A stretch of DNA of 64,000 nt from positions 11,624-75,623 of the forward strand of contig AZYC01000001.1 of NCBI GenBank assembly GCA_000513075.1. Direction: 5' to 3'. The notes beneath the pieces are model-generated. The model did no database searches. It was not told where the DNA came from and was given only the letters and a program-made list of their open reading frames with translations. Of this stretch, positions 5,173 through 55,369 are shown piece by piece (position 1 is the stretch's first letter; each line of letters starts with the position of its first letter). Position numbers and translations under genes: made by a program. The stretch comes from an alpha proteobacterium SCGC AAA288-G21 (GTDB lineage: Bacteria; Pseudomonadota; Alphaproteobacteria; Pelagibacterales; Pelagibacteraceae).

Positions 5173-5294
5173 ATTTATCCCCTTTTAGTTGTTAAATTTA
5201 GTGATGGGCAAACTTTTAAACAGGTTGTAACTAGCATATCAAATATTATTCTTCAAGTCAGAGCTATGGATAAAATTGAACAAATTCTGGCACA

Positions 5295-7253: not shown

Positions 7254-7275
7254 ATTTGTATAATATGAAAATTTT

Positions 7276-21903: not shown

Positions 21904-22689
21904 CTAGTTGTGATTTTTTTCAATAAAATTTTTGACAATTTCTCTCATTTCAAAGGCTTTTTCAAAAATAATCATGTGACCACATTCTTTAAGCACTTGT
22001 AATTCAGAATTTTTAATTTTTTCAGCCAATTGTTTTCCTTTATTTAAAGGAACCATCTTGTCTTTATCGCCCAGTATACAAAGGGTCGGACAATTTATCT
22101 CTGATGCAGCTTTTGATCCATTTTTATAATTATTGCATGCTCTAAGATCAACAGCTAAACCTTCCTGAACTTGTCTTGGTGAATTAATAATTTTTTGAAC
22201 TGGATTTCCTCCAATAAATTTTTTTACTCCTTCGTAGCCCCATTTCATCATAAGTTCTACAGACTTCATATCACCCCCGTCTGCATAATTAATCAGATCC
22301 GTATTAACCGGCAATTCATAAGATCCTGCTATGAGGTTTAAACTTTTAATTAGTTTTGGAAAACGGGAAGCAAACTCAAGTCCAACTAAACAACCTTGTG
22401 AATGACCGACAAATGAAATTTCATTTATTTTTAAATTTTTCATTAATTTTTGAATCCAATCCGCGATTTCCTCAATAGATTTTATTGCTGGTCCCTCTGA
22501 ACCACCATGACCAGGTAAATCAAGTGACAAAATACTATAGCCCTTGGAAGCTAAAAATTGTTCGTGTAAAGACCAAACTATATGTGTAAGACCGCTACCG
22601 TGCATTAAAATAACTACTGGCCTTGTGGTATCAAAATCTAGCCCACCAGTTGATGCAAAAACACTTTTTTTATCTACTTCGAACTTCAG
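21904..22689 (-). CDS. Alpha/beta-fold hydrolase. The first ATG is at 22605, but the conserved N-terminal strands continue in frame up to a CTG at 22689.
   Basis: Nucleophile elbow GHSQGC and HG oxyanion motif (..RPVVILMHGSG..). The frame upstream of ATG 22605 reads LKFEVDKKSVFASTGGLDFDTTRPVVIL, with no ATG, GTG or TTG. The CTG overlaps the upstream TGA stop as CTGA. Confidence 0.7.
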   Translation of the reverse strand: MKFEVDKKSVFASTGGLDFDTTRPVVILMHGSGLTHIVWSLHEQFLASKGYSILSLDLPGHGGSEGPAIKSIEEIADWIQKLMKNLKINEISFVGHSQGCLVGLEFASRFPKLIKSLNLIAGSYELPVNTDLINYADGGDMKSVELMMKWGYEGVKKFIGGNPVQKIINSPRQVQEGLAVDLRACNNYKNGSKAASEINCPTLCILGDKDKMVPLNKGKQLAEKIKNSELQVLKECGHMIIFEKAFEMREIVKNFIEKNHN

Positions 22690-24314
22690 CCCATCTCCTT
22701 AGCTTTTTTTCTTAATTCGAATTTTTTAATTTTTCCGGTGGATGTTTTTGGCAATTCACAAAAAACTATTTTTTTTGGAAGTTTAAATCCAGCCAAGGTT
22801 TCCCTACAAAATTTTATTATTTCTTCCTCTGTAGCTTTTTTTTCTGGTGCTAGTTCAACAAAAGCGCAAGGTGTTTCTCCCCATTTTTCATCTGGTTTAG
22901 CAACGACCGCAGCAAGAGAAACTGAGGGATGTTTAGCTACTGTATTTTCAATCTCTATTGATGAAATATTTTCTCCGCCTGAAATGATAATATCCTTAGA
23001 TCTATCTTTTATTTGAATGTAACCGTTAGGATGTATCACTGCTAAATCACCCGAATGAAACCACCCGCCTTTCATAGCTTTTTCTGTCGCTTCTTTGTCT
23101 TTAAAATAACCTTTCATCACTACATTTCCGCGTATCATGATTTCCCCTATAGTTTTTCCATCTCGTGGAACTGATTTCATAGTTTCTGGATCCATAACGT
23201 CAACGTCTTCAGTGTTAGGATAACGTACTCCCTGGCGAGCACTAATATCAGCTTTTTCATCTTCATTTAAACCATCCCATCCTTCATTCCACGCACACTG
23301 CAAAATATGTCCATAAGTTTCTGTAAGACCATAGACATGCATAACTTCAAAACCTAAGTTTTTCATTTTTTTGAAAATAATACTTGGTGGAGGTGCCGCT
23401 GCTGTTAAAACATATATCTTGTGCTTTAAGGGTTTTTGTTCTTCCTTCGGTGCGCTAGCCAACATATTTAATATGATGGGTGCTCCGCCAAAGTGAGTAA
23501 CTTTATGTTCTGTTATTAAATCAAAAATTTCCTTAGCTCTAATATTTCTAATGCAGATTACACGGGCATGAAGCATAGCTAATGTCCATGGATAACACCA
23601 ACCGTTGCAGTGAAACATAGGAACCGTATACAAAAAGTTTAAACGGTTTGGCATATTCCACGCCACTGCACTGCCAGTTGCCATCAAATAAGAGCCTCTA
23701 TGATGATAAACAACTCCTTTAGGATTACCTGTCGTGCCTGATGTATAATTTAATGAAATCGCTTGCCATTCATCTTTTGGTCTTTTCCACACATAATTAA
23801 TATCGCCTTCATTTAAAAAACTTTCATATTCAAATCTTCCAAACTTTCCTGCATCCTTTAAGTCTGCTTGCTTATCGTCAATATCTATAATTAAAATTTT
23901 TCTACTCAATCCTTCTATTGCTTTTTTTACAACATCATGAAATTGACGATCTACAATGAGTGCTTTGGTGTCACCGTGATTTAAAATGTATCCTACTGTT
24001 TTAGAATCCAATCTTGTATTAATCGCATTAAGCACAGCTCCAGTCATTGGAACAGAATAGTGAGCTTCAAATAATTCTGGTATATTAGGAGCCATAATTG
24101 ATACTGTATCGCCTAGTTTAACTCCATGTTTTTCTAAAGCGCTAGCAAACCTTACACAACGATCATAAGTTTGTTTCCAAGTATACACTCGTTTTTTATA
24201 AATTATAGATTCGTAATTTGGATAAATATCTTTTGTTCGCTCAAGGAAGGTTATGGGAGTCAAAGGAACAAAATTTGCATTATTTTTTTCGAGATTTTGA
24301 TCGTAATTGTTCAT
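22686..24314 (-). CDS. AMP-dependent acyl-CoA synthetase/ligase (short/medium-chain type; possible DmdB-like role)
   Basis: 542 aa. AMP-binding motif YTSGTTGNPKGV. N-terminal ..NFVPLTPITFLERT.. is typical of the AAE/AlkK-like subfamily. Confidence 0.85.
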   Translation of the reverse strand: MNNYDQNLEKNNANFVPLTPITFLERTKDIYPNYESIIYKKRVYTWKQTYDRCVRFASALEKHGVKLGDTVSIMAPNIPELFEAHYSVPMTGAVLNAINTRLDSKTVGYILNHGDTKALIVDRQFHDVVKKAIEGLSRKILIIDIDDKQADLKDAGKFGRFEYESFLNEGDINYVWKRPKDEWQAISLNYTSGTTGNPKGVVYHHRGSYLMATGSAVAWNMPNRLNFLYTVPMFHCNGWCYPWTLAMLHARVICIRNIRAKEIFDLITEHKVTHFGGAPIILNMLASAPKEEQKPLKHKIYVLTAAAPPPSIIFKKMKNLGFEVMHVYGLTETYGHILQCAWNEGWDGLNEDEKADISARQGVRYPNTEDVDVMDPETMKSVPRDGKTIGEIMIRGNVVMKGYFKDKEATEKAMKGGWFHSGDLAVIHPNGYIQIKDRSKDIIISGGENISSIEIENTVAKHPSVSLAAVVAKPDEKWGETPCAFVELAPEKKATEEEIIKFCRETLAGFKLPKKIVFCELPKTSTGKIKKFELRKKAKEMG

Positions 24315-24319
24315 ACCAA

Positions 24320-25222
24320 TTAACTTATTTTAAATTCTTTTATAATTTCTGCAATTACTTCTTCTTTTTTATATCCCATCAAATGAATTCCTTTAACACC
24401 TTCAATTTCATGAAAAATTTTAATTAATTCAAGACAAATTTTTTTGCTTTCTTCTTTTTGATCTTTTGCTTGTTCTAATCTTTTTATAATTTCATCAGGA
24501 ACATCAACTCCAAATAAATTATCATTCATCCATTTAGCACTTTTTGCTGAAGCAAAAGGACCTAAGCCAATTAAAAATGAGGTTTTTTCTAATATTCCAG
24601 TGTCATTCAAAACTTTCATATATTCTCTTAGTTTTCCAGCTTCAAAAACATATTGAGTTTGAAAAAAATCAACTCCATTTTTAATTTTATTTAAAATTTT
24701 TTCAGTATTTGGTTTTCCTTTTGATGGAACTTCTGCTCCTCCGATAAATAGTTTTGGTGCGGGATCAATAACTCTTCCTGATGGAAATTTTTTATCTTTT
24801 CTCATCATGTTAGCTGTTGTTACTAAAGTTGAGCTGTCAATATCATTCGCAGGTTTTGTTTCTGGTTGATCACCAATTTTAGGATCATCTCCTGACAAAC
24901 AAAGAACATTGTGCACACCTAAAGCCGATGCTCCAACTAAATCACCCTGCAAAGCCAAACGGTTACGATCACGAACTGTTAATTGCAATATTGGATCAAT
25001 ATTATTTTGAGCAAGAATAATTGAGGCTGTGAGCGCAGACATATGTACTTTTGCCCCTGGACTGTCAGTAACATTAATAGCATCCGCAACATCTTTTAGC
25101 GGTTTTATATTTTTTAATAAGGTTTCCTTACTTGATGCATCTGGAGGTGTGGTTTCTGCAGTAAATACAAAAATACCATTATGTAATTTCTTATGAAGCA
25201 AGCTTTGATATTCCATATTCAT
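24320..25222 (-). CDS. metF: Methylenetetrahydrofolate reductase family protein
   Basis: 300 aa with MTHFR-family sequence (..FTAETTPPD.., ..INVTDSPGAKVHMS.., ..LCLSGDDP..). Confidence 0.8.
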   Translation of the reverse strand: MNMEYQSLLHKKLHNGIFVFTAETTPPDASSKETLLKNIKPLKDVADAINVTDSPGAKVHMSALTASIILAQNNIDPILQLTVRDRNRLALQGDLVGASALGVHNVLCLSGDDPKIGDQPETKPANDIDSSTLVTTANMMRKDKKFPSGRVIDPAPKLFIGGAEVPSKGKPNTEKILNKIKNGVDFFQTQYVFEAGKLREYMKVLNDTGILEKTSFLIGLGPFASAKSAKWMNDNLFGVDVPDEIIKRLEQAKDQKEESKKICLELIKIFHEIEGVKGIHLMGYKKEEVIAEIIKEFKIS

Positions 25223-25347
25223 TCCTAAAAGTTTTTAAAGTAAACGCCAAAAAACTAGCATAAATAGTTTGCTACCTCTATTTTAAAGTCATTGATTTCG
25301 GTTAATAGCTAATTTATTCTACATAAATCAAAGCGATACATAACTCG

Positions 25348-25360
25348 TCGTAAATTACGA
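25348..25360. promoter_or_regulatory. Perfect 13-bp palindrome TCGTAA-A-TTACGA, a candidate operator in the metF / monooxygenase divergent spacer
   Basis: Read directly from the sequence. It sits 46 nt upstream of the monooxygenase ATG in the 177-183-nt spacer. The 1-nt centre rules out an RNA hairpin. It has a GT-N5-AC core. Confidence 0.35.
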
Positions 25361-25405
25361 AAGTGGGATCGGTCGTCTTTAAAATTTATTTTAAAGGAGA
25401 TGCTG

Positions 25406-26560
25406 ATGAAAATTGGATATTTTTGTAATATTACTAATTGGAAAAAGAAACCATATACAGAAATTTTAGATAATGCTCGGGATATAGCTGTTTATTGTGA
25501 CAAAAATAATTGGGACTCTATCTGGTTTACTGAACATCATTTTAACCATGAAGGTATGGAGTCTTCTCCTAATCCGTTAATGATGTGCGCAGATATTGCC
25601 GCAAGAACAAAACAAATAAGATTAGGACAGGCTTGTAATGTTATTACTTTTTGGAATCCTATAAGATTAGCTGAGGATATTGCTGCTTTGGATCAATTTT
25701 CTAAAGGAAGAGTGGAAGTCGGTATTGGTAGAGGTATATATGGAAGAGAAGCTATTCATATGAACGTCGCAGCAGATTTAAAAGATCAAGCCAAAAATAA
25801 AAGGCTATTTCAAGAAACCTTAACTGTAATGAAAAAAGCTTGGACTGAAAAGTTTTTTAATCATAAGGGAGAATTTTATTCTTACCCTTCTCCAAACTTT
25901 GTTTGGCAACATGATATGAGTCCGCCTAATGAAGATTTTATGGATTTAAAAACCAATCAAATAAAAAAAATTGGTGTAATTCCTCGACCATACCAAAAAC
26001 CTCATCCACCACTATGGCAAGTAGTAGACTCCACAGGATCTATAGAGTGGGCAGCAAAAAATGGAATTAATTGCATAATGTGGATTCCTACAGTTAAAAC
26101 TTTAAAAAAAAGATTTGAAATATACAAAAATGCAAAATCTGAAACAGAAAAAAGAGATGTCCCAATGGGAGAGGGAATTTCACTAGTAAGAGATATGTTT
26201 GTCGCAGAAACAATGGAAGATGCAAAAAAGTTAGCTGGCGAACAAATGGTAAAATACATGAGATGGGTTTGCCATTGGAGGGGCCTAGGCAATCATATGG
26301 ACCCAGGTGAGGAACTTCCTCAAACTAAAGGAAAGTTAGATTTATTAAATTATGAATTTTTGCATAAAAGAAATATGTTATTTGGTACACCAGACTATGT
26401 AATCGAAAAAATTAATGAATTACAGTCAGAACTTAATCTTCAAAATTTACAAGTGTGGTCAAGTATGCCTGGTGTAAAACATGAAGATGCTATAAAAAGT
26501 ATTAAACTTTTTAATGACGAAGTAATTCCAAAAATAAATTCAGTAAAACAAGCAGGTTAA
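25406..26560 (+). CDS. Luciferase-like (LLM class) flavin-dependent monooxygenase
   Basis: About 384 aa. ..WFTEHHF.., ..IRLGQACNV.., ..LDQFSKGRVEVGIGRG.. are LLM hallmarks. The start is set at the second ATG, with an AGGAG Shine-Dalgarno 6 nt upstream. Confidence 0.85.
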   Translation: MKIGYFCNITNWKKKPYTEILDNARDIAVYCDKNNWDSIWFTEHHFNHEGMESSPNPLMMCADIAARTKQIRLGQACNVITFWNPIRLAEDIAALDQFSKGRVEVGIGRGIYGREAIHMNVAADLKDQAKNKRLFQETLTVMKKAWTEKFFNHKGEFYSYPSPNFVWQHDMSPPNEDFMDLKTNQIKKIGVIPRPYQKPHPPLWQVVDSTGSIEWAAKNGINCIMWIPTVKTLKKRFEIYKNAKSETEKRDVPMGEGISLVRDMFVAETMEDAKKLAGEQMVKYMRWVCHWRGLGNHMDPGEELPQTKGKLDLLNYEFLHKRNMLFGTPDYVIEKINELQSELNLQNLQVWSSMPGVKHEDAIKSIKLFNDEVIPKINSVKQAG

Positions 26561-26562
26561 TA

Positions 26563-27153
26563 ATGGATTTAAAACTAAGAAAATTTACAAAATTTGTTGA
26601 TAAAACTTTTATTGAAGGTGGTAAGCAAGCTAAAGAACCTGTTTTATTAGTTTCGGTTGCTGCTGTTATAAAAAATCCTTGGGCTGGGAAAGGATTTGTG
26701 GAAGATTTAAAACCAGCTATTCTTGATTTAGCACCAAAGCTTGGTGATATTTTGGTGCCTGAACTAATTAAAGAAATAGGTTCTGGAGAAAAAATTTTGG
26801 CTTATGGAAAAGCTGCCGTTGTTGGTTTAGCAGGTGAAATTGAACATGCGTCGGCATTTATCCATACATTAAGATTTGGAAATAAATTTAGAGACGCAGT
26901 CGGAGGTACTTCTTATTTAAGTTTTACTAATACTAGAGGACCTGCTGGATGTAAAATTGCAATACCGATGATGCACAAAACCGATGCTGGCTTAAGACCT
27001 TATTACTTAACACATGAATTTAATATTCAAGACGCACCTTGTGATGATGAAATTGTCGTTGCCATTGGTGGATCACCTGGAGGAAGAGCCCATGCCAGAA
27101 CTGGAGATCGATACCAAGACATGGAAGAGATGGGGATAAAAAATCCCAAATAG
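26563..27153 (+). CDS. 'Amino acid synthesis' family protein (DUF1185/AA_synth), function unknown
   Basis: 196 aa. The pattern ..VAAVIKNPWAG.., ..YGKAAVVG..GE.EH.. matches my recollection of the PF06684 family. Starts 2 nt after the monooxygenase stop. Confidence 0.65.
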   Translation: MDLKLRKFTKFVDKTFIEGGKQAKEPVLLVSVAAVIKNPWAGKGFVEDLKPAILDLAPKLGDILVPELIKEIGSGEKILAYGKAAVVGLAGEIEHASAFIHTLRFGNKFRDAVGGTSYLSFTNTRGPAGCKIAIPMMHKTDAGLRPYYLTHEFNIQDAPCDDEIVVAIGGSPGGRAHARTGDRYQDMEEMGIKNPK

Positions 27154-27158
27154 TTTCA

Positions 27159-27950
27159 ATGCCTTACACGTCAAATTTATTTGGTACTTTTTATTCATTA
27201 AATAAAGTCAATAAAGATAATCCAATAGTATTTATACATGGAGTTGGTTTAAACCATGAAATATGGAAACCGCAAATTGATTTTTTTAAAGAATACAATA
27301 CACTTACTTATGATTTGCTTGGACATGGAAAAACACCATTAAGTAAATTAAAAGTAACTTTTAATGATTTTTCTCGACAATTACTCAACTTAATAAATGA
27401 ATTAAAATTTAAAAAAATTCATTTGGTAGGTTTTTCACTGGGAGCTCTTGTTGCCAGGTATTTCGCTTCCAAATATAATGATAGGCTATGTTCATTAATA
27501 ATTCATGCTTCAATATATAAAAGAACAGAAGAACAGAAGAGAGTAGTTATTAATAGATTTAACGTAGCTAAACTGAACAGACCAGCTTCAAAAAAATCGG
27601 CTCTTACTAGATGGTTAACGGAAGATTATATATCAAAAAATCCAGAAATTTATAAAGAAATATATTCAATGTTAGAAAATAATAGCAATAAAAATTTTTT
27701 AAAATCTTATGAACTTTTTACTCATTATAATGATGATGACGATGAGATTAAAAAAATTAATGTTAATACTCTAATAACTGCTGGCGAACACGACGTAAGA
27801 TCGACACCTGAAATGGCCAGAAATTTAAATAAAGTAATAAAAAATAGTAAGTTTGTGAAGATCAAAAAAGGAAAGCATCTTTGTAGTATAGAATGTGCTG
27901 ATGATGTTAATATAACTTTTAAAGAATTTATTGATAACAATAATGCCTAA
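27159..27950 (+). CDS. Alpha/beta-fold hydrolase
   Basis: 263 aa. HG motif (VFIHGVGLN), nucleophile elbow GFSLGA and a C-terminal His region (KGKHLCSIE). Confidence 0.85.
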   Translation: MPYTSNLFGTFYSLNKVNKDNPIVFIHGVGLNHEIWKPQIDFFKEYNTLTYDLLGHGKTPLSKLKVTFNDFSRQLLNLINELKFKKIHLVGFSLGALVARYFASKYNDRLCSLIIHASIYKRTEEQKRVVINRFNVAKLNRPASKKSALTRWLTEDYISKNPEIYKEIYSMLENNSNKNFLKSYELFTHYNDDDDEIKKINVNTLITAGEHDVRSTPEMARNLNKVIKNSKFVKIKKGKHLCSIECADDVNITFKEFIDNNNA

Positions 27951-29424
27951 ATTTAAAGAATATAAAATGTACATCAATGGAGAGTGGGTTGATGCAGAAG
28001 ATAAAAAAACCTTTGAAAGTCTAAATCCAGAAAACAACGAATCATGGGCTGTAGTTCCAGAAGCAAGTGCCAAAGACGTAGACAAAGCTGTTCAATCAGC
28101 ACAAAAAGCTTTTGAGGGGGAGTGGCCAAAGTTATTCCCAAAAGAAAGAGCTAAATACTTAAGAGCAATAGCTAGCCAATTAAGAGAAAATGCAGAGTTA
28201 TTAGGAAAAATTGAAACAATCGATACAGGTAAACTTTTTAGAGAAACGAAAACTCAGGCGAATTATATAGCTGAATATTATGATTATTTTGCTGGCTTAA
28301 CAGACAAAGTTGAGGGAACCGTCTTGCCAATTGATAAACCTGATATGCAAGTTATCACAACTAGAATTCCTATAGGTGTTATTGCAGCAATTATTCCATG
28401 GAATTCACAAATGTTATTAACTGCCGTTAAACTTGCTCCCGCTCTTGCTATGGGAAATACTGTTGTAATCAAATCTTCCGAGTTGGCTCCAGCTACAATG
28501 TTTGAATTTGTAAAATTAATTGAAAAAACGGGAATACCCAAAGGAGTTGTAAATGTTATTAGCGGATTTGGAGATCCTTGTGGCAAAGCATTGACCAGTC
28601 ATACTCTTGTCGAAAGAATTGCATTTACTGGAGGGCCAGAAACTGCAAGACACATAATAAAAAATTCTGCAGAAAATTTGTCTCAGGTAAGTTTAGAATT
28701 AGGAGGAAAAAGTCCAGTTGCTGTTTTCGAAGACGCAGATCAGGATAATGCATTGAATGGTATAACAGCAGGAATTTTTGGAGCTAGCGGCCAAAGTTGT
28801 ATAGCTGGATCTAGATTATATTTGCAAAATAAAATTTATGATAATTTTTTAAATAAATTAATTGAACGAGCAAATAAAATAAAACTTGGTGGACCAATGG
28901 ATCCTGACACCCAAATGGGTCCGCTTACTAGTTTTAAACAATTGGAAATAATAGAAAAAACAATTAAACTTACTATTGAACAAGGCGGTAAACTAAGATG
29001 TGGAGGAAAAAGACACGCTCTTTCAAATAAAGGTTATTACTTTCCAGCAACAATAATTGAATGCGAAAATCATAACCTTCCAACAGCTAAAAATGAATTA
29101 TTCGGCCCAGTGCTATCAGTGATGAAATTTGAAACAGAAGAAGAAGTAATTAACAAAATGAATGATAACCAATATGGTTTATCTTCGGGAGTCTACACAA
29201 AGGATTTGGGTAGAGGTTTAAGAGTTTCGAAAGCAATACGTGCTGGGATTACATTCGTAAATACTTATAGACTAATATCACCTTCGGCACCTTTTGGTGG
29301 AATGAAAGATAGTGGGTATGGCAAAGAAGCTGGTATTGAATCAATAAAAGATTACACTAGAATTAAAACGACATGGTTTAACACTTCAAAAAAACCCATG
29401 TCAGACCCATTTACAATGGGATAA
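27943..29424 (+). CDS. NAD(P)-dependent aldehyde dehydrogenase
   Basis: ALDH motifs ELGGKSP and catalytic GQSCIAGS. Start candidates are TTG 27931, ATG 27943 (overlapping the upstream stop) and a downstream ATG (MYINGEW). Confidence 0.9.
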   Translation: MPKFKEYKMYINGEWVDAEDKKTFESLNPENNESWAVVPEASAKDVDKAVQSAQKAFEGEWPKLFPKERAKYLRAIASQLRENAELLGKIETIDTGKLFRETKTQANYIAEYYDYFAGLTDKVEGTVLPIDKPDMQVITTRIPIGVIAAIIPWNSQMLLTAVKLAPALAMGNTVVIKSSELAPATMFEFVKLIEKTGIPKGVVNVISGFGDPCGKALTSHTLVERIAFTGGPETARHIIKNSAENLSQVSLELGGKSPVAVFEDADQDNALNGITAGIFGASGQSCIAGSRLYLQNKIYDNFLNKLIERANKIKLGGPMDPDTQMGPLTSFKQLEIIEKTIKLTIEQGGKLRCGGKRHALSNKGYYFPATIIECENHNLPTAKNELFGPVLSVMKFETEEEVINKMNDNQYGLSSGVYTKDLGRGLRVSKAIRAGITFVNTYRLISPSAPFGGMKDSGYGKEAGIESIKDYTRIKTTWFNTSKKPMSDPFTMG

Positions 29425-39958: not shown

Positions 39959-39986
39959 TTTACAACATCCAACAACAAACGCATTA

Positions 39987-40070
39987 GTGGGCGAACTCTC
40001 GCTGACTAATGTCGATCTCTTTGTTACCAAAGACACCGCAAAGAACTACTATTTTTTGCGGAAGTTCGCC
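39987..40070. other. GC-rich element of about 85 nt that can form multiple helices (candidate structured RNA or regulatory element); strand unresolved
   Basis: Closing helix GGCGAACT (39990-39997) / AGTTCGCC (40063-40070). Internal hairpins are TCTTTG-TTAC-CAAAGA (40018-40033) and CCGCAAA..TTTGCGG (40036-40061). It is much more GC-rich than the flanking spacer. Confidence 0.45.
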
Positions 40071-48200: not shown

Positions 48201-49202
48201 TTATAACCATTTTGGGTAGGGTAGTCCTTTTTCAGTTAAAAATTTTTTATTAAATAGCTTGCTACGATATATATCAGATTTGTCACACAGAATTGTTACA
48301 ATGGTATGATTGGGACCTAAATCTTTGGCTAATCTTATAGCACCAGCAACGTTGATACCTGTGCTTGTACCTAAACTTAAACCTTCTTTTTCTAACAATT
48401 CAAATAAGACTGTTAAGGCATCATGATCATTAATGGAATATGCATCATCAATTGGAGCTTGTTCGAAATTTTTAGTTACACGACTAGAACCTATACCTTC
48501 AGTAATTGACTTTCCTTCTAATTTTAATTCTCCTTGTTTGATATGATTATAAAGAGCAGATCCTTTTGGATCCGATAAGACAATTTTAATATTCTTATTT
48601 TTTTCTTTAAGAGCTTTACCCACGCCAGCGATAGTTCCTCCCGTTCCCGAGGCACAAATAAAGGCATCAACTTTACCTTCTGTTTGATCCCAAATCTCTG
48701 GGCCTGTAGTTTCGTAATGACCTTTATAATTAGCAATATTATCGAATTGATTTGCCCAAAATACACCTTGTGAATGTTCCTTTTTTAAATCTTCTGCAAG
48801 TTTACCTGAATACTTTACATAATTATTTGGATCCTTATAAGGTTTTGCTGGCACTAAACGTAAGTCGGCACCAATAGACTTAAGAATATCTTTTTTTTCT
48901 TGAGTTTGAGTTTCAGGCATTACAATAATGGTTTTGTAACCTCTGGAATTTCCAATTAAACATAATCCAATTCCAGTATTTCCTGCAGTTCCTTCGACAA
49001 TAGTTCCTCCTTTAGAGATTAATTTTTTCTCCTCTGCATCTTTAATTAAGGCCCAGGCTGCTCTATCTTTAACTGAACCGCCCGGGTTTAAAAATTCAGC
49101 TTTTCCATAAATATTACAACCGGTTAATTCAGAAGGGCCATTTAATTTAATAAGAGGCGTATTTCCTATACCATTAACAAAATTATTAAATGTATTTTTC
49201 AT
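48201..49202 (-). CDS. cysK: PLP-dependent cysteine synthase family protein (CysK / CBS-core / MccA-like; exact activity unresolved)
   Basis: 333 aa. PLP-lysine motif NPGGSVKDRAA and Gly-rich loop SGTGGTIAG. Resembles the CBS-like branch of the family but lacks CBS domains. Confidence 0.85.
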   Translation of the reverse strand: MKNTFNNFVNGIGNTPLIKLNGPSELTGCNIYGKAEFLNPGGSVKDRAAWALIKDAEEKKLISKGGTIVEGTAGNTGIGLCLIGNSRGYKTIIVMPETQTQEKKDILKSIGADLRLVPAKPYKDPNNYVKYSGKLAEDLKKEHSQGVFWANQFDNIANYKGHYETTGPEIWDQTEGKVDAFICASGTGGTIAGVGKALKEKNKNIKIVLSDPKGSALYNHIKQGELKLEGKSITEGIGSSRVTKNFEQAPIDDAYSINDHDALTVLFELLEKEGLSLGTSTGINVAGAIRLAKDLGPNHTIVTILCDKSDIYRSKLFNKKFLTEKGLPYPKWL

Positions 49203-49230: not shown

Positions 49231-49824
49231 TTAACAAGCAGGAATATCATCCTCATCAATAATCCCATAGGGTTTGAATGAAGTATCTTTAATCTCAGAT
49301 TTAGTCCTAATATTTTTTGCAGGAACCCCAACCATGATAGCATGCTCTGGTACATCACGTGTGACCACAGCATTTGCACCAATTTTAGCAAATTCTCCAA
49401 CTATGATCGGTCCTAAAACTTGTGCTCCAGATCCCACCACAACATTATTTTTTAAGGTTGGATGACGTTTGATTCCTCTTTGTTCACCAGAATTAATACT
49501 AGGCGATATTCCTCCAAGAGTAACAGAGTGATAAAGTGTTACATTATCTTCAATTTTAGAAGTTTCTCCAATTACTACACCCATTCCATGATCGATAAAA
49601 AAGTTTTTTCCTATCTTTGCCGCCGGATGTATTTCTATTCCAGTTAAAAATCTTGAAGATTGAGAAACGATTCTTGCAATTAAAGTAAGTCCGACTTTGG
49701 AAAAAAAATTTGCTATTCGATGAAAAAAAATTGCTTTGACCCCAGGGTAAGTTAGGATAATACCTAGCTTAGATTTAGCCGCAGGATCTCGATCCATAAT
49801 AGATTTTATATACTCGTTCATCAT
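49231..49824 (-). CDS. cysE: Serine O-acetyltransferase (short form)
   Basis: 197 aa. ..DRDPAA.. N-terminus and a hexapeptide-repeat core [38 protein letters not shown]. Confidence 0.92.
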
Positions 49825-50279
49825 ATGTAATTTAACGGAAGATTGCTGGTTTGTTTAATTTCTTCCATGGAAAAACTAGTTGTAACATCTGATAGATCAA
49901 TTTTATCAGTCAGTTTTTTATAAAATGTATCAAATTTGTCTATACTTGGAACTAATACTTTTAAGAGATAATCAGTTGTTCCGCTCAACCGATAAAATTC
50001 TACAACTTCATCCATTTCTTTAACGCCTTCTATAAATTTTTTTGACCATGCCATATTATGTTGACTTGTTCTGATTTGAACAAAAGCCACAGTGGAAAGA
50101 TTTATTTTTGCTCGATCAATAACAGCTACTTTTTTTTTAATGAATCCTTGCTTATATAATTTATTTATTCTTAGCCAACAAGGTGTTGATGATAAATTTA
50201 CCTTTTTTGACAATTCTGCAACGGGTATGTCTGCATTGATTTGCAATAAGGATAAAATTTTCTTATCTATGTCATCCAT
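49821..50279 (-). CDS. lrp: Lrp/AsnC family transcriptional regulator
   Basis: 152 aa. N-terminal HTH ([37 protein letters not shown]) and a C-terminal RAM domain. The stop overlaps the cysE start (ATGATGA). Confidence 0.9.
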
Positions 50280-50402: not shown

Positions 50403-50499
50403 TCATCGAATAGCGCTGATTTAAATCTAATTGCAGGCGCTAAACAAATCTTGCTAAAGCGATGATCTTATTAGGCCACCGCAATAGCCGGTGGTTTTT
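50403..50499 (+). promoter_or_regulatory. Structured 5' leader (riboswitch/attenuator candidate) of the sulfur operon
   Basis: Outer helix TCATCG (50403-08) / CGATGA (50460-65). Inner hairpin AGCGCTG (50412-18) / CAGGCGCT (50434-41). The loop GATTT is complementary to the downstream AAATC, so a pseudoknot is possible. A terminator hairpin follows. A candidate promoter TTGATA-18 nt-TATAAA lies at 50340-50369. Confidence 0.5.
50475..50499 (+). terminator. Intrinsic-terminator-like hairpin inside the leader, about 80 nt upstream of the first start codon
   Basis: CCACCG-caatagc-CGGTGG followed by TTTTT. No plus-strand gene lies upstream that it could terminate. Confidence 0.55.
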
Positions 50500-50579
50500 C
50501 TTGAGGCAACTCAATTTAAACCTAGGTATTTAATTTGTGCACCTGACAATTGTCGAAGCACTAAACAAAAAGGAGAAAA

Positions 50580-51482
50580 ATGAAAAAAATACTAGTAACA
50601 ATCTTTTTCTTTATTTTTAGCTTTACTGTTTTTGCAGCAGAACCATTGGTAGATACAAAATGGTTGAATGATAATTTGAAAAATAAAGAAGTTTTTGTTT
50701 TAGATATTCGAAACAAAATCGATAAAGGTTCTTATGAAACGTTTACACAAGGTCATATTCCAGGCTCCATACATTCCGATTATCTTCAAGACGGATGGAG
50801 AACAAAAGTTGAAGAAATTATCGGACAATTGCCCCCCGTTAAAGATCTTGAACTATTAATCGGTAGTCTTGGAATTGGTAATAAAAATCATGTAATTGTT
50901 GTTTACGGCGGAGTTAGTTCAAGTGATTTTGGCAGTGCCTCAAGAGTCTATTGGACGTTTAAAACTTTGGGCCATGACGAAGTATCCATCTTAAATGGTG
51001 GCTATAAAGCTTGGGAGTCTTCAGGTTTTAAAATTGAAACTGGCGAGCATAATCCGAAACTCGCAAAGTTTATAGCTAACTATACTGACAAGTATTATGC
51101 TAATGCTGACGATGTTATTAAAGTTATCGAGAATACTAACATTGGCTTGATTGATGCCAGACCTGCTGCTTTCTTTGTTGGAGAAAAGAAAAAGAAGCAA
51201 GCTTTAAGAGCAGGAAGAATTAAAAATTCTTTTAACTTAGAGCAACAAACTTTGGTTAACGAAGATGGTACCTTTAAATCGGTAGAGGAAATTAAGATAC
51301 TAATTTCACAAGCGGGTTTGAATGGTAAAGACGGTTACATATCCTACTGTAACACAGGGCACTGGGCTTCCATACCATGGTTTGCTTTAAGTGAAATAGC
51401 TAAAGAACCAAATGTTAAGAACTACGACGGCTCTATGGTTGATTGGACATTTGATCCTAATAGAGAAGTTATAAAAGGATAA
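50580..51482 (+). CDS. Periplasmic two-domain rhodanese (thiosulfate/3-mercaptopyruvate sulfurtransferase family)
   Basis: 300 aa. Signal peptide MKKILVTIFFFIFSFTVFA/AEP and active-site loop YCNTGHWAS in the second domain. A strong AGGAG Shine-Dalgarno precedes it. Confidence 0.88.
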   Translation: MKKILVTIFFFIFSFTVFAAEPLVDTKWLNDNLKNKEVFVLDIRNKIDKGSYETFTQGHIPGSIHSDYLQDGWRTKVEEIIGQLPPVKDLELLIGSLGIGNKNHVIVVYGGVSSSDFGSASRVYWTFKTLGHDEVSILNGGYKAWESSGFKIETGEHNPKLAKFIANYTDKYYANADDVIKVIENTNIGLIDARPAAFFVGEKKKKQALRAGRIKNSFNLEQQTLVNEDGTFKSVEEIKILISQAGLNGKDGYISYCNTGHWASIPWFALSEIAKEPNVKNYDGSMVDWTFDPNREVIKG

Positions 51483-51501
51483 TTTGAGAAATTAGCTATA
51501 G

Positions 51502-51565
51502 TCAGAAAAAGGGGGGGGGACGTATTCCTCGTTATTTTATTAAGTTTTATCTCCTCCTTTTCTGA
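51502..51565 (+). promoter_or_regulatory. Long intercistronic hairpin containing a G9 tract
   Basis: TCAGAAAAAGGGGGGGGG (51502-51519) pairs with TCTCCTCCTTTTCTGA (51550-51565). That gives about 17 pairs including G-U, one bulged A and a loop of about 30 nt. It lies between the rhodanese and yeeE genes. Confidence 0.5.
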
Positions 51566-51592
51566 TCTAAATAAATCATATAACTTTTCAAT

Positions 51593-52759
51593 ATGATACA
51601 AACAAAAAAAATTGATTTTTTCATACTTTCATTTGGTTTAGTCAGTTCGATTTTTTTAGTATGTTTTTTCAAACAGATAATTAATTTCCAACATTCTTTG
51701 ATATTTGTAATAGGTCTGTTGTTAGGACTTACTTTATATCACGCTTCGTTTGGATTTACTGGCGGTTGGAGAAATTTTATAGAACGTTCTGATAGCAGCG
51801 CTCTTAGAGCGCAATTTTTAATGTTGGTATTTGCAATTCTTTTATTTTCAGGATTTGTAAATTCAAAAAGTATATTCTATGGAAATCCAATTGTAGGTTC
51901 TGTGGCTCCCACAAATGTTTCATTAATAATTGGTTCATTTATTTTTGGTTTAGCTATGCAACTTGCAGGTGGATGTGGATCAGGGACACTTTATACAGTG
52001 GGCGGAGGAAATACTAAAATGCTTATTACATTGATATTTTTTATTATTGGCTCTTTAGTTGGAACTTATAATTTTACTTTTTGGATTGAATTACCCACTT
52101 TAGGAAACATATCTTTATTAGATAAATTTGGAATTATTAATTCAATCATAATTCAATTAATCTTTATTGTTTTGTTGTACCTAATTTTTTCATATGTAGA
52201 TAAAAAGAAAAATAATATTGTCGATCATAGCGATATTTTTAAATCTAGTAATTTTAATATTATCAAAGGTTCTTGGCCGTTATTTCTGGGAGCAGTTTTA
52301 TTGGCAATATTAAATTTTTTAATGCTCAATGTTGCTGGACATCCTTGGTCTGTTACTTTTGCCTTTGGGTTATGGGGTGCAAAAATTGCAGATTTTATAG
52401 GAATAAATGTTGCAAGTTGGGATTTTTGGAATTTTCAATATCCAAAAGTAGCGTTAAGAAATAGTATTTTTGCAGACCATACTTCTATATCTAATATTGG
52501 AATAATATTAGGTGCTTTAATTGCATCGGGTTTAGCAGGTTCATTCAATAATAAAAATAGGATCAAAACAAAGATTATTTTTGCCGCAATGCTTGGAGGT
52601 TTTTTTATGGGATTTGGTGCAAGACTTGCATTTGGTTGTAATATTGGGGCCCTTTTTAGTGGTATTGCTTCTGGAAGTTTACATGGTTGGATTTGGTTTC
52701 TATTTGCTTTCATAGGAACTTATTTTGGGGTGAAATTAAGAAGGTTATTTTATACATGA
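51593..52759 (+). CDS. yeeE: YeeE/YedE (TsuA-like) sulfur-compound/thiosulfate transporter family protein
   Basis: 388 aa, polytopic. Two conserved Cys loops, QLAGGCGSGTLY and LAFGCNIGALF, typical of the Sulf_transp family. Confidence 0.85.
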   Translation: MIQTKKIDFFILSFGLVSSIFLVCFFKQIINFQHSLIFVIGLLLGLTLYHASFGFTGGWRNFIERSDSSALRAQFLMLVFAILLFSGFVNSKSIFYGNPIVGSVAPTNVSLIIGSFIFGLAMQLAGGCGSGTLYTVGGGNTKMLITLIFFIIGSLVGTYNFTFWIELPTLGNISLLDKFGIINSIIIQLIFIVLLYLIFSYVDKKKNNIVDHSDIFKSSNFNIIKGSWPLFLGAVLLAILNFLMLNVAGHPWSVTFAFGLWGAKIADFIGINVASWDFWNFQYPKVALRNSIFADHTSISNIGIILGALIASGLAGSFNNKNRIKTKIIFAAMLGGFFMGFGARLAFGCNIGALFSGIASGSLHGWIWFLFAFIGTYFGVKLRRLFYT

Positions 52760-52935
52760 AATCACTAATATTTATTTTGATTTTTTGTTTTTTTATTTTT
52801 CTTGGATATTTAGATCACACCAAATATGGTATTGTTTATAATCCCTTTGCCCATCACAGTTTAAAATTAGATAAAAATAAAAGTGGAAAAAAACAGATTT
52901 TTAGTGCACCCTGTTCAGAATTTGGTGGAGGATAA
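52756..52935 (+). CDS. Small hydrophobic-N-terminus protein of 59 aa ending ..APCSEFGGG
   Basis: The ATG overlaps the yeeE stop (ATGA). N-terminal signal/TM-like MKSLIFILIFCFFIFLGYL, a single C-terminal Cys and a Gly-Gly-Gly terminus. Coding status is inferred from coupling only. Confidence 0.4.
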   Translation: MKSLIFILIFCFFIFLGYLDHTKYGIVYNPFAHHSLKLDKNKSGKKQIFSAPCSEFGGG

Positions 52936-52948
52936 GTAACTCTTAAAA

Positions 52949-53332
52949 ATGATTAAACAAATACCCAGTAAAGAAATAAAGGAATATCTAAAAAAGAATC
53001 CTAAATGTATATTGCTAGATGTAAGGACAAAAGAAGAATGGGACACAATTGGTAAACCCGACGGAGAGAAAATAGGATTAAAAACCTATTTTTTGTCAAT
53101 ACAAATTGGTGAAGAAAGAATTTTTAATGAAAATTTTATACAGGAATTTAAAAATTTAAACATTGGTCAAGATCATGAAATCTTGAACATGTGTAGATCG
53201 GGTGGCAGATCTCAAGTAGTGGCCGAATTACTAACTAAAGAGAATTATACTTGCTCAAATATTTCCGACGGTTTTGAAGGCAATCAAGAAAATGTTGGCT
53301 GGAAAAATTGTGATTTGCCATGTCAAAAATAG
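52949..53332 (+). CDS. Cytoplasmic single-domain rhodanese
   Basis: 127 aa. ..ILLDVRTKEEW.. and active-site loop MCRSGGRS. Confidence 0.88.
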   Translation: MIKQIPSKEIKEYLKKNPKCILLDVRTKEEWDTIGKPDGEKIGLKTYFLSIQIGEERIFNENFIQEFKNLNIGQDHEILNMCRSGGRSQVVAELLTKENYTCSNISDGFEGNQENVGWKNCDLPCQK

Positions 53333-54504
53333 ATCTGAAAGGTAAAAATTCTAAATTAATTCATGGGGCTTTAAATAAAACGCATTTTAGGGAACAATCA
53401 GAAAGTCTCTTTTTGACTTCTGGATTCGTATATCAGAGCGCTGAACAAGCGGAAGCAATTTTTAAAGGAGATGAAACGGGATTTCAGTATACACGATATG
53501 CCAACCCAACAATTGATACATTTGAAAAAAGAATGGCGCTAATAGATGGTTCGGAAAGTTGTTTTGCTACAGCAAGCGGAATGGCTGCAGTTTTTGGTTC
53601 TATGATGTGTCAACTACAAGCTGGGGACCATGTTGTATCAGCCACCGCTTTATTTGGATCCTGCAGGGAGATTATAAAAAATATAATTACAAGATATGGA
53701 ATAAAAGTATCTTTTGTTGATGGAAAAAATATAAAAAGTTGGGAAAAAGAGATTAAATCTAATACGAAAATTTTCTTTTTTGAAACTCCATCCAATCCTT
53801 GTTTAGAACTAGTTGATATGGAAGCTGTATGTAAACTAGCAAAAAAAAATAATATAAAAGTGATCGTTGATAATATTTTGGTATCACCCGTTTTGCAAAA
53901 CCCATCAAAGTTTGGAGCAGATATTATTGTATATTCGGGCACCAAACATATTGATGGTCAAGGAAGAACAATGGGAGGAGCAATTTTAAGTTCAGAAAAA
54001 TTTAGGGAAGAAATCCTAAAGCCTTTTCTAAGACATACGGGTCCATGTATTAGTCCATTCAATGCTTGGGTTTTATCAAAAGGACTAGAAACAGTTCATC
54101 TAAGAGTGGTTGAACAATCAAAAACTACTGAAAAAATGGTGGAATTTTTATCTGAACATAACAAAGTTGACTCTGTGAATTATCCATTTAAAAAAAATCA
54201 TGCACAATATGAACTTGCAAAAAAACAGCAGAAGATGGGAGGAAATGTTTTAAGTTTTTATATCAAAGGCGAAAAAAAAGAGGCGTTTAATTTTTTAAAT
54301 AATCTAAAAATGATTGATATTTGTAATAATTTGGGAGATACAAAATCTTTAGCCATTCATCCAGCAACCACAACACACAGGATTTTAACCGATGAAGAAA
54401 GAAGTGATCAAAACATTTGTGATAATTTAGTTAGGCTCTCCGTTGGATTAGAGGATTTTGAAGATATTAAAAACGATTTAGATCAAGCATTAAGCTCCAT
54501 ATAA
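53320..54504 (+). CDS. metZ: O-succinylhomoserine sulfhydrylase (Cys/Met-metabolism PLP enzyme)
   Basis: 394 aa. ..TRYANPTIDTFEKRMALIDGSE.. and PLP-lysine motif YSGTKHIDGQGR. The start overlaps the rhodanese 3' end by 13 nt. Confidence 0.88.
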   Translation: MSKIDLKGKNSKLIHGALNKTHFREQSESLFLTSGFVYQSAEQAEAIFKGDETGFQYTRYANPTIDTFEKRMALIDGSESCFATASGMAAVFGSMMCQLQAGDHVVSATALFGSCREIIKNIITRYGIKVSFVDGKNIKSWEKEIKSNTKIFFFETPSNPCLELVDMEAVCKLAKKNNIKVIVDNILVSPVLQNPSKFGADIIVYSGTKHIDGQGRTMGGAILSSEKFREEILKPFLRHTGPCISPFNAWVLSKGLETVHLRVVEQSKTTEKMVEFLSEHNKVDSVNYPFKKNHAQYELAKKQQKMGGNVLSFYIKGEKKEAFNFLNNLKMIDICNNLGDTKSLAIHPATTTHRILTDEERSDQNICDNLVRLSVGLEDFEDIKNDLDQALSSI

Positions 54505-54516
54505 GGAAAAATTAAT

Positions 54517-54930
54517 ATGAATATTATAAATTTTACACCGCAATCTGCTTTTTTAGGAGGAATAATAATAGGCTTGGCTGTAATAATATTTTTTATTGGA
54601 AACGGTCGATTAGCGGGCATTAGCGGCATTGTAAATGATACTCTTGTTTCAAAACAAAACAGAACTGATAACTTTTTATTTGTTATCGGGTTAGTTTTGG
54701 GGCCAATTTTTTATATATTTCTTACAAAAATTGATATTCCTTTTTTAATAACGTCATCGCTACCAATAATTATTAGTGCTGGCCTTTTAGTTGGCATAGG
54801 AACAAAAATTGGAAGCGGTTGTACAAGTGGTCATGGAATCTGCGGTATTAGTCGGTTGTCACTAAGGTCTATTACAGCAACGATCATTTTTATGATTACA
54901 GCAATAATAACAGTTAAGTTAATTGGATAA
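54517..54930 (+). CDS. Half-size YeeE/YedE family membrane protein (PmpA-like)
   Basis: 137 aa, 4 TM. Conserved GSGCTSGHGICG loop. Confidence 0.8.
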   Translation: MNIINFTPQSAFLGGIIIGLAVIIFFIGNGRLAGISGIVNDTLVSKQNRTDNFLFVIGLVLGPIFYIFLTKIDIPFLITSSLPIIISAGLLVGIGTKIGSGCTSGHGICGISRLSLRSITATIIFMITAIITVKLIG

Positions 54931-54934
54931 AACA

Positions 54935-55369
54935 ATGATATCTAGAATTATATCTCTTATTAGTGGAACAATTTTTGGTGTTGGTTTGTCCGTTTCTAAC
55001 ATGATCAATCCAGAAAAAGTTCTAGGATTTTTAGATTTATTTGGTCAGTGGGATCCCTCTTTAATTTTTGTGATGTTGGGTGCAATTATCGTAAGTGCTC
55101 CAGTTTTTTTTCTATATAGAAATAAAAACAAACCTTTATTTGCTGACAATTTCTCTATTTCGACTTTAAAGTCTATTGATAAAAATTTAATTATCGGTTC
55201 TGGTACGTTTGGCATTGGATGGGGGATGGTTGGATTTTGTCCGGGCCCAGCAATATCATCTCTTGCTTTATTAAATACTTATTCAGTGTTTTTTGTATTA
55301 TCTATGTTAGGAGGATTTTTATTAACTAAATTATTAGATAGAATAATTATTCCAACTCAACACACATAG
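54935..55369 (+). CDS. Half-size YeeE/YedE-related membrane protein (PmpB-like)
   Basis: About 144 aa counting from ATG 54935 (the ORF-track start is TTG 54923). Conserved GFCPGPA loop. The 3' end overlaps the convergent thiolase gene by 23 nt. Confidence 0.78.
   Translation: MISRIISLISGTIFGVGLSVSNMINPEKVLGFLDLFGQWDPSLIFVMLGAIIVSAPVFFLYRNKNKPLFADNFSISTLKSIDKNLIIGSGTFGIGWGMVGFCPGPAISSLALLNTYSVFFVLSMLGGFLLTKLLDRIIIPTQHT

Follow-up and report, generated by a model that had tools for sequence, protein, structure and literature searches.

Positions 50580 to 55369 of a 64,000-nucleotide (nt) stretch of SAR11 (Pelagibacterales) DNA from contig AZYC01000001.1 (the window) hold seven genes on the plus strand. 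They encode, in order, a putatively secreted two-domain rhodanese, a YeeE-like channel, a 59-amino-acid (aa) peptide, a cytoplasmic single-domain rhodanese, MetZ, and two half-size YeeE/YedE-type proteins resembling PmpA and PmpB. We lean toward the view that these genes form an operon, repressed by S-adenosylmethionine (SAM), that takes up inorganic reduced sulfur, as thiosulfate or in zero-valent form, and incorporates it into homocysteine. Few organisms in the sea are as numerous as SAR11 bacteria, whose sulfur supply has so far been explained by organic compounds such as dimethylsulfoniopropionate and methionine. They are without assimilatory sulfate reduction and depend on reduced sulfur (PMC5069961, PMC6018831). 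The operon offers a concrete, testable route from thiosulfate, polysulfide, or elemental sulfur to SAR11 biomass, and it suggests that some SAR11 members build methionine from inorganic reduced sulfur.

All seven open reading frames (ORFs) lie, co-directional, at the coordinates given in a first-pass annotation of the window, and Pfam and NCBIfam scans bore out its family assignments (rhodaneses, Sulf_transp, MetZ, and the half-size pair). The spacers between the genes are at most 13 nt or negative, with the sole exception of 110 nt between the first rhodanese gene and yeeE. Reading the sequence verified both overlaps that had been proposed, namely, an ATGA shared by the yeeE stop and the start of the small ORF (52756-52759) and 13 nt shared by the small-rhodanese gene and metZ (metZ ATG at 53320; rhodanese stop codon TAG at 53330-53332). 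The motifs CNTGHW, CRSGGRS, GSGCTSGHGICG, and GFCPGPA were all found in the translated ORFs. Here, Rhd300 denotes the two-domain rhodanese (50580-51482), Rhd127 denotes the small rhodanese (52949-53332), and L-numbers denote fetched comparison loci. Apart from the peptide and DUF6969, which accompanies the peptide in other genomes, all parts fall, by sequence comparison, in known families.

Module structure and synteny

The seven genes had initially been treated as a single unit. Their order does recur unchanged in the independent contig L083 (52 kb; 86-98% amino-acid identity), where cysK-cysE-lrp lies on one side and a thiolase gene on the other. The unit is nevertheless divisible: rhodanese-YeeE-peptide, rhodanese-MetZ, and PmpAB are modules that can each be found without the others, and their fusion is specific to the lineage. 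The arrangement is not due to chance: L083 repeats the order, and YeeE-peptide-Rhd-MetZ-PmpA recurs in two other flanks. One of these is L090, in which the block yeeE-peptide-Rhd-metZ-pmpA(B) has a different downstream flank; the other is L092, which reads metY-metF-metE-yeeE-peptide-Rhd-metZ-pmpA, without the secreted rhodanese.

Elsewhere the modules stand apart. In L007, Rhd300-yeeE-peptide follows a divergent lrp gene, and bhmT and Rhd127-metZ are separate units; in L005, bhmT-metZ without Rhd127 is followed by lrp and then by Rhd300-yeeE-peptide-peroxiredoxin. L084 and L089 carry bhmT-Rhd-metZ, cysK-cysE, and pmpAB near each other and have no rhodanese-yeeE, and L001 and L091 contain, of the module genes, YeeE and the peptide only. 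In L002, Rhd300-yeeE-peptide is followed by an MTHFR gene. The metZ gene lies at most 4 kb from the module in L003, L004, and L005, and in HIMB114 and other genomes of the subclade IIIa type, which carry lrp, Rhd300-yeeE-peptide, and a peroxiredoxin gene, no metZ occurs within 10 kb. The modules travel apart yet repeatedly rejoin each other and sulfur amino-acid genes. The peroxiredoxin gene, of the 1-Cys type, follows the module in many SAR11 loci (L005, 5700-6362; L006 and L008 to L010, about 11378-12040), and in L084, a 1-Cys peroxiredoxin gene precedes pmpA.

Leader RNA, the rhodanese-MetZ pair, and PmpAB

The 300-nt leader between the divergent lrp gene and the Rhd300 gene carries structured RNA elements. 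The one nearest to Rhd300 is a SAM-V-like aptamer on the plus strand (50515-50578; Rfam SAM_V, 34.3 bits, E = 5.7e-4, with a gathering score of 41). It ends at 50578 and covers the AAGGAG Shine-Dalgarno sequence, and the Rhd300 ATG (50580) abuts it. A 5-nt deletion accounts for the low score of the window copy; the homologous elements directly 5' of Rhd300 in L083 and L007 reach 58.0 and 58.4 bits, respectively, both above 41. In L007, bhmT, Rhd127-metZ, and Rhd300-yeeE each stand behind their own above-threshold SAM-V, and in L005, a SAM-V heads bhmT-metZ. As our covariance model, trained on five SAM-V copies, detected no additional copy in the window or in L001 to L010, SAM-V precedes Rhd300 in the window, L083, and L007 only. 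A SAM-V-like element 5' of peroxiredoxin-pmpA in L084 (6613-6685) scored 55 bits with our own model, and Rfam at an E value of 0.01 did not confirm it, so that it counts as a lead only.

SAM-V is an experimentally validated translational off-switch for SAR11 methionine genes (PMC5069961, PMC2704228), and its targets on record are metY, mmuM, bhmT, metH, and osmC (PMC2704228, PMC5069961). The rhodanese, yeeE, metZ, and PmpAB genes are not among them and would be new gene targets for this riboswitch.

Two further elements precede the aptamer on the plus strand. The first element of this tandem leader is a SAM-II-like hairpin/pseudoknot candidate (50403-50474), for which Rfam gave 17.1 bits with SAM_alpha and 18.3 bits with the SAM-II long-loop model, under the gathering scores of 36 and 44. 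Its hairpin forms in the predicted fold, and the hairpin and the UUGCUAAAGCG tail are kept in L083 and L007, with stem changes that preserve pairing. The Rfam similarity is faint, and it is only the conservation of the hairpin across the three loci that weakly favors a SAM-II identity. Between the two aptamer-like elements, a terminator scan and folding indicated a terminator-like hairpin with a U-run (50475-50503), which is conserved in L083 and L007 as well. The bhmT leader of "Candidatus Pelagibacter ubique" has the same architecture of upstream hairpin, terminator, and aptamer (PMC5069961). The window thus resembles the SAM-V and tandem SAM-II/SAM-V leaders of that organism (bhmT, metY, and mmuM), which belongs to the same taxonomic group, in placing an aptamer that covers the ribosome-binding site before the start codon. 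It differs in the genes controlled (rhodanese, YeeE, MetZ, and PmpAB), in a SAM-V copy below threshold, and in a SAM-II part of weak similarity. As a separate observation, above-threshold IMES-2 RNA motifs occur in subclade IIIa-type loci (L006, 1165-1306; L008, 2840-2981; L010, 600-741).

The fourth and fifth genes of the operon pair a rhodanese with MetZ. Rhd127 (52949-53332, plus strand) is predicted to be a cytoplasmic single-domain rhodanese with the loop CRSGGR (Pfam Rhodanese, E = 3.6e-6). The gene that it overlaps encodes a predicted O-succinylhomoserine sulfhydrylase (MetZ; 53320-54504, plus strand) of the Cys_Met_Meta_PP family, which exceeds the cutoff of TIGR01325 (515.2 versus 510.05 bits), stays below those of the other three MetZ models, and contains the pyridoxal phosphate-lysine motif YSGTKHIDG. 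The closest solved relative of Rhd127 is 2FSX (E = 8.6e-14), the structure of Mycobacterium tuberculosis Rv0390, whose loop reads CRSGNR (PMC8533005) and to which no function is assigned (PMC5740895). The product of Rv0391 is MetZ (bioRxiv 10.1101/2024.07.28.605477, where Rv0390 is not mentioned).

The coupling of the rhodanese to metZ had been listed as unusual in the first-pass annotation, a view that does not hold. The Rhd127-MetZ pair is old and widespread: it is found in L007, L083, L084, L089, L090, and L092 and also in the actinobacterium Nocardia farcinica (L086; rhodanese, 3983-4399; MetZ, 4441-5607), whose MetZ is 49% identical to that of the window. From their locus tags, we take Rv0390 and Rv0391 to be adjacent and co-oriented. 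A CRSG[GN]R single-domain rhodanese directly before metZ would then be common to M. tuberculosis and SAR11, as it is to Nocardia. The age and spread of the pairing strengthen the case for a functional link between rhodanese and MetZ, and the cross-phylum pair may give a first functional lead for Rv0390. As the function of Rv0390 is unassigned, the comparison would supply a link and not a mechanism. The SAR11 pair differs in being joined to sulfur channels and riboswitches and in a conserved C-terminal ...DLPC cysteine, which is present in the SAR11 Rhd127 copies (P0121-P0230) and absent from the actinobacterial relatives; the codons of this tail (53309-53332) lie partly inside the metZ overlap. 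A Rhizobium leguminosarum match to Rhd127 adjoins a sulfate permease and not MetZ and was set aside.

The operon closes with two adjoining half-size genes on the plus strand, each with one conserved cysteine, which is the defining layout of PmpAB. The PmpA/YedE1-type half-size Sulf_transp protein (54517-54930; motif GSGCTSGHGICG) matches PF04143 positions 178-309 and is 36-53% identical to plasmid-borne half-size YeeE/YedE proteins, and its PmpB/YedE2-type partner (54923-55369; motif GFCPGPA) matches DUF6691 (E = 2.7e-40). The start of pmpB may instead be the ATG at 54935, a later ATG being called in L083 and L090. PmpAB-type pairs import zero-valent sulfur in a cysteine-dependent manner (PMC10812762). 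The window pair shares with the PmpAB/YedE1E2 systems of Serratia, Cupriavidus, and Sinorhizobium the adjacent half-size genes, the single cysteines, and the combination of the PF04143 C-terminal half with DUF6691. It differs in context: neither part of the usual setting, an ArsR/BigR regulator and a persulfide dioxygenase, was found within ~10 kb (by Pfam analysis of the syntenic L083), and MetZ and a SAM riboswitch are present, for which the expected role would be supply and not detoxification.

The putative secreted rhodanese, the channel, and the peptide

Rhd300 (50580-51482, plus strand) is a two-domain rhodanese (Pfam Rhodanese in two stretches, E = 5.7e-28) with a predicted Sec-type signal peptide, as judged by reading its N terminus, where basic residues are followed by a hydrophobic segment and then, ahead of the mature part, by a small residue. 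Its closest solved relatives are thiosulfate sulfurtransferases. It aligns over the full length with 1UAR and 3AAX, and its single cysteine, in the loop CNTGHWAS, falls at the catalytic position of the six-residue loop of the C-terminal domain. It fits the two-domain rhodanese description and stays below the SseA equivalog cutoff (121 versus 250 bits). In all 38 fetched related loci, the rhodanese has a similar signal-peptide-like N terminus and the loop CNTG[HWN][WLFM]A[SA].

The 110-nt spacer downstream of Rhd300 contains a plus-strand stem-loop (51503-51564; -24.7 kcal/mol; z = -2.3) holding a run of nine G residues (51511-51519), which is odd for a genome of 31% G+C. Stable hairpins of unrelated sequence occupy the Rhd300-yeeE spacer in all five SAR11 loci checked; those in the relatives lie at 8539-8650 in L083, 941-1019 in L003, 2339-2408 in L004, and 5246-5342 in L007. 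The same pattern is also known from operons in which the periplasmic component exceeds its membrane partner.

The channel (388 aa; 51593-52759, plus strand) matches PF04143 over essentially its full length (E = 1.5e-68; profile positions 1-309 of 310) and belongs to a distinct subfamily of the YeeE/YedE (Sulf_transp) membrane proteins. The first-pass annotation had credited it with both conserved cysteine loops. In the alignment with the solved YeeE of Spirochaeta thermophila, which runs in two stretches, C128 and C349 are indeed kept as equivalents of C91 and C293, and the first of the three TsuA cysteines is replaced, the position of C22 reading FGF. Both C91 and C293 are indispensable in the solved thiosulfate transporter (PMC11582611). 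The channel would seem to work like YeeE and yet stand outside the TsuA group; assignments to TsuA or YedE were rejected on scores and partner. It is a common protein: at least 523 relatives were found in species-representative genomes among the matches listed, and marine metagenomes contained 7,007 matching cluster representatives for the channel and 3,040 for the small rhodanese, each representing a 90%-identity cluster.

Another early observation was that no YeeD/TusA partner is encoded. No TusA-type CPxP ORF besides PmpB was found in the window, and none was found among the conserved neighbors, so that the CPxP protein is indeed missing. The channel is not, however, simply without a partner, as a conserved peptide with a Pro-Cys motif had been overlooked in this role. 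The peptide (59 aa; 52756-52935, plus strand), whose start overlaps the yeeE stop, consists of an N-terminal hydrophobic helix, an Asp-His pair, and a tail with one Pro-Cys (C53). In every SAR11 locus, its gene comes next after yeeE and either overlaps the yeeE stop codon or adjoins it, and the same arrangement is present in Thalassospira, Devosia, Aminobacter, Mesorhizobium, Aliihoeflea, Pseudaminobacter, Rhizobiaceae, one Rhodospirillales genome, and one gammaproteobacterial genome. All 38 fetched Rhd300-yeeE loci carry it, and in nearly all of them it begins in an ATGA-type overlap or immediately at the yeeE stop. Loci in which this YeeE subfamily has no rhodanese (Acinetobacter, Salinicola, and others) lack the peptide, and in the few peptide loci without a rhodanese, the upstream flank is cut or holds another gene or a weak, divergent rhodanese match.

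The design of the peptide is constant: one or two basic residues, 16 to 20 hydrophobic residues, Asp-His (rarely Glu-His, Asp-Gln, or Asp-Tyr), and a tail in which nearly every cysteine is preceded by proline. SAR11 peptides have a single motif (SAPCSEFGGG in the window and MPCGLGGS elsewhere), and larger genomes have 2 to 34 Pro-Cys motifs, mostly as (N/A/S)PC(A/G)A repeats. These tandem arrays, with up to 34 cysteines, vary widely in repeat number within one genus. Expanded arrays were found in Thalassospira (L012, L017, L019, L027, and L043, at about 11100-11800), in Devosia (L015, L029, and L066), in L023, L033, L050, and L057, and in L088 on Sinorhizobium meliloti pSymB (about 7100-7470). 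The basic N terminus and the mostly neutral or acidic tail suggest an N-in, tail-out orientation. The helix is probably an uncleaved anchor in SAR11 and Thalassospira, because the residue before Asp-His is large there. No Pfam or NCBIfam model matches the peptide or its relatives, and the named relatives in a large protein collection are all hypothetical proteins; the S. meliloti copy is absent from that collection. The pSymB record in the plasmid collection carries no features; a second, annotated S. meliloti record, with an incomplete table, lists the sulfurtransferase, YeeE, and a hypothetical protein, and the peptide ORF is not listed. An unnamed Pro-Cys peptide family is tied to one YeeE subfamily and its secreted rhodanese, also in the genetically tractable S. 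meliloti.

Other partners accompany this module outside SAR11. A DUF6969 gene directly follows the peptide gene in 20 loci (L013 to L016, L021, L023, L025, L029, L033, L038, L047, L050, L051, L054, L057, L059, L066, L073, L080, and L081); no NCBIfam match, solved relative, or paper was found for DUF6969. In the gammaproteobacterial locus L051, the order is yeeE-peptide-DUF6969-rhodanese, and this shuffling of the same genes argues for function over inertia. In Devosia and one Rhizobiaceae genome, divergent genes for a DsbD/CcdA-like membrane protein and a secreted thioredoxin adjoin the module (L029, 7552-8772, with matching sites in L015, L021, L038, L054, L066, L080, and L081; the thioredoxin gene also in L047), which fits periplasmic thiol chemistry. 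Two observations concern the channel in other settings. In L077 (1069-2235) and 16 other Acinetobacter loci, a yeeE relative without rhodanese or peptide lies ~1 kb downstream of metK, the SAM synthetase gene. A 1,000-bp contig in a "Thalassarchaeaceae archaeon" bin (L011) carries a SAR11-type yeeE with 69% identity and is most likely a binning contaminant.

The nearest known system is TsuA/YeeE with TsuB/YeeD, as in Escherichia coli and S. thermophila. Both systems use the same full-length Pfam family with the indispensable cysteines kept, both pair the channel with a small cysteine partner encoded next to it, and both are tied to sulfur assimilation. The channel in the window is ~40 to 60 residues longer than TsuA, has lost the first cysteine, and scores far lower; its partner is a membrane-anchored Pro-Cys peptide that probably faces the periplasm and not a cytoplasmic protein of TusA fold; and the secreted rhodanese is an extra partner. 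The peptide may also be compared with SoxYZ, given that its flexible tail, rich in glycine, bears a presumably periplasmic cysteine that is a candidate for carrying sulfur covalently, and the channel may be compared with SoxT of sulfur oxidizers, a YeeE-like protein importing sulfur from the periplasm. In contrast to Sox, however, the peptide has no sequence relation to SoxY, no sox genes lie nearby, and the system would be assimilatory and not energy yielding.

Proposed route, alternatives, and neighboring features

In the proposed route, periplasmic thiosulfate or polysulfide would yield its sulfane sulfur to the secreted rhodanese, and the peptide, made in translational coupling with the channel, would offer its Pro-Cys thiol on the periplasmic side as an acceptor or carrier where sulfur enters the channel. 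On its way into the cell, the sulfur species would pass the two conserved cysteines of the YeeE-like channel. The Rv0390-type cytoplasmic rhodanese, with its thiosulfate-type loop CRSGGR, would pick up the sulfur as a persulfide and release it or hand it to MetZ, which would make homocysteine from O-succinylhomoserine. The PmpAB/YedE1E2-type two-piece channel could act as a second, parallel entry route for zero-valent sulfur, and the divergent lrp-cysE-cysK unit may serve cysteine as the operon serves homocysteine. The gene content, motifs, couplings, riboswitch, synteny, and co-occurrence are matters of observation; how the peptide is oriented, which substrates are used, which way they move, and how sulfur is handed on are inferred. 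A functional tie of the genes to methionine synthesis and to one another, already part of the initial proposal, is upheld by the SAM-V-type leader, the SAM-V elements of L007, metY-metF-metE in L092, and the rhodanese-MetZ coupling that extends to Actinobacteria.

Several points weigh against this reading. The window copy of SAM-V lies below its Rfam gathering score and could be weakened. No SAM-V was detected before Rhd300 in L002 to L006 or L008 to L010 with Rfam or our own covariance model, and Rfam detected no riboswitch in seven non-SAR11 loci, so the link of the rhodanese-YeeE-peptide module to methionine may be specific to some SAR11 lineages. The YeeE-peptide pair occurs without an adjacent periplasmic rhodanese in L091 and L092, and the rhodanese is therefore not obligatory there. 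The distal tail of the window peptide is lysine rich, and the outward topology of the peptide is a prediction by the charge rule. The channel falls short of both TsuA models (NF041049, 54.6 bits with a cutoff of 645; NF052577, 74.4 bits with a cutoff of 400), and its best NCBIfam score is with the selenium-linked YedE/FdhT model NF033796 (138.6 bits with a cutoff of 350). The reaction of a rhodanese with thiosulfate also yields sulfite, and no sulfite-disposing enzyme was seen near the operon. In agreement with the first-pass annotation, neither a sulfite reductase nor a persulfide dioxygenase was found within ~10 kb (by Pfam analysis of the syntenic L083) or among ten further window ORFs (by Pfam), the remaining ORFs being judged by reading of the N terminus only.

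A broader proposal, which we put forward tentatively, is that the Pro-Cys peptide, the YeeE-like channel, and the secreted rhodanese with the CNTG loop constitute an undescribed extracytoplasmic system for the capture of sulfane sulfur, through which a sizeable part of SAR11 might build methionine and cysteine from thiosulfate or zero-valent sulfur. The cysteine peptide, facing outward from the membrane, would take the part that the cytoplasmic, TusA-like YeeD plays for TsuA, and DUF6969 would be included in many Alphaproteobacteria. If true, such a capture system would qualify the idea of SAR11 living solely on organic reduced sulfur. The LD12 genome paper noted an uneven distribution of thiosulfate/3-mercaptopyruvate sulfurtransferase across SAR11 and suggested oxidation (PMC6018831), and a Red Sea study listed rhodaneses as SAR11 core genes (PMC3686209). 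Our literature searches found no description of the gene set, the peptide, or the riboswitch link, and a search on the S. meliloti module genes yielded nothing usable.

The rivals of sulfur import into homocysteine differ in how much of the evidence they accommodate. A stricter version would have a protein-to-protein relay from the periplasmic rhodanese through YeeE to the cytoplasmic rhodanese, with a rhodanese persulfide and not free sulfide feeding MetZ. Every SAR11 copy has the Rhd127 gene overlapping metZ, the two genes adjoin in Nocardia, and the pair is conserved across phyla; gene overlaps are, however, common in streamlined genomes and indicate co-expression, not contact. The SAR11 DLPC cysteine could be a swinging arm, but it could equally resolve the persulfide and free sulfide. 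Cysteine synthases are reported to use, and to prefer, glutathione persulfide (PMC13188885), and by this precedent a direct persulfide donation to MetZ would be possible, if doubtful. MetZ enzymes are nevertheless described as sulfide users (bioRxiv 10.1101/2024.07.28.605477), and the bhmT-metZ unit of L005, which has no rhodanese, indicates that MetZ is independent of it in some lineages. We consider the full relay unlikely.

Rather improbable, too, is a role in homeostasis or export, in which the YeeE-like channel and PmpAB would not supply sulfur but deal with reactive sulfur species or toxic by-products, e.g., by exporting sulfite or balancing sulfane sulfur, with MetZ and CysK using internal sulfide, e.g., from organosulfur breakdown. 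PmpAB-type pairs usually lie beside ArsR/BigR regulators and persulfide dioxygenases and are read as sulfide detoxification systems (PMC10812762), and the top plasmid match of PmpA likewise lies over an ArsR/SmtB regulator gene; near the operon, Pfam analysis of L083 showed no such regulator or dioxygenase, and when a YedE1E2 pair was tested, zero-valent sulfur was imported and not exported (PMC10812762). Sulfite formed by a rhodanese from thiosulfate would have to exit the cell, and the peroxiredoxin gene after the module in many SAR11 loci also counts in favor of this reading. A secreted rhodanese and an outward thiol peptide would, however, make little sense for export, and SAM control would be expected of a supply route, not of detoxification.

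Coincidental packing, in which unrelated genes were compressed in a streamlined genome and their order is meaningless, seems very improbable to us. SAR11 spacers are very short everywhere, the last gene overlaps a convergent thiolase gene, and the modules are separate in relatives; yet the same genes rejoin in at least five arrangements, always with sulfur amino-acid genes or SAM-V, the rhodanese-YeeE-peptide group is kept across orders and shuffled in L051, and the rhodanese-MetZ pair is kept across phyla. Least probable of all is uptake or processing of selenium by a YedE-like channel and a rhodanese, as suggested by the best NCBIfam score of the channel and a secondary match of the rhodanese to the selenite/tellurite-operon rhodanese ExtH, since both scores are far under their cutoffs (350 and 200), the YedE alignment is not colinear (channel residues 224-384, in the C-terminal half, fall on profile positions 3-159, in the N-terminal half), selenium genes, selD and YedF included, were seen neither in the window nor in the conserved neighborhood, and the operon is SAM controlled and contains MetZ.

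Divergent from the operon, on the minus strand, lies the lrp-cysE-cysK unit. The Lrp/AsnC-family regulator (49821-50279; AsnC_trans_reg and HTH_AsnC domains) has opposite-strand counterparts upstream of Rhd300 in eight other Pelagibacterales loci (L004 to L010 and L083). The cysE gene for serine O-acetyltransferase (49231-49824; TIGR01172, 215.3 bits with a cutoff of 210.65) overlaps the lrp stop by 4 nt. The last gene encodes a CysK-type cysteine synthase (48201-49202; PALP, E = 5e-74; NCBIfam PRK10717 cysteine synthase A, 533 bits with a cutoff of 387), whose closest solved relatives are cysteine synthases and whose position is syntenic in L083, L084, and L089.

At the other end of the operon, the PmpB-type gene shares 23 nt (55347-55369) with the convergent thiolase gene, an overlap that leaves no space for a terminator. 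An ffh small RNA (sRNA) motif upstream of the ffh gene (39974-40026, minus strand; 55.4 bits) is a marker of Pelagibacter-type genomes. Together with the G+C content of the window (~31%) and its close relatives, which are all marine SAR11-type sequences, it assigns the window, by sequence, to the Pelagibacterales. Farther away, a 254-aa ORF for aspartate-semialdehyde dehydrogenase (20862-21626, minus strand) has its NAD-binding domain reduced to its end and a 277-nt gap upstream; this short ORF could reflect a frameshift, a sequencing error, or a pseudogene. A cluster at 22686-29424, unrelated to the operon and of no obvious role, holds genes for an AMP-binding ligase and an MTHFR-like protein on the minus strand and for a luciferase-like monooxygenase, an AA_synth protein, a hydrolase, and, by reading, an ORF resembling aldehyde dehydrogenase on the plus strand.

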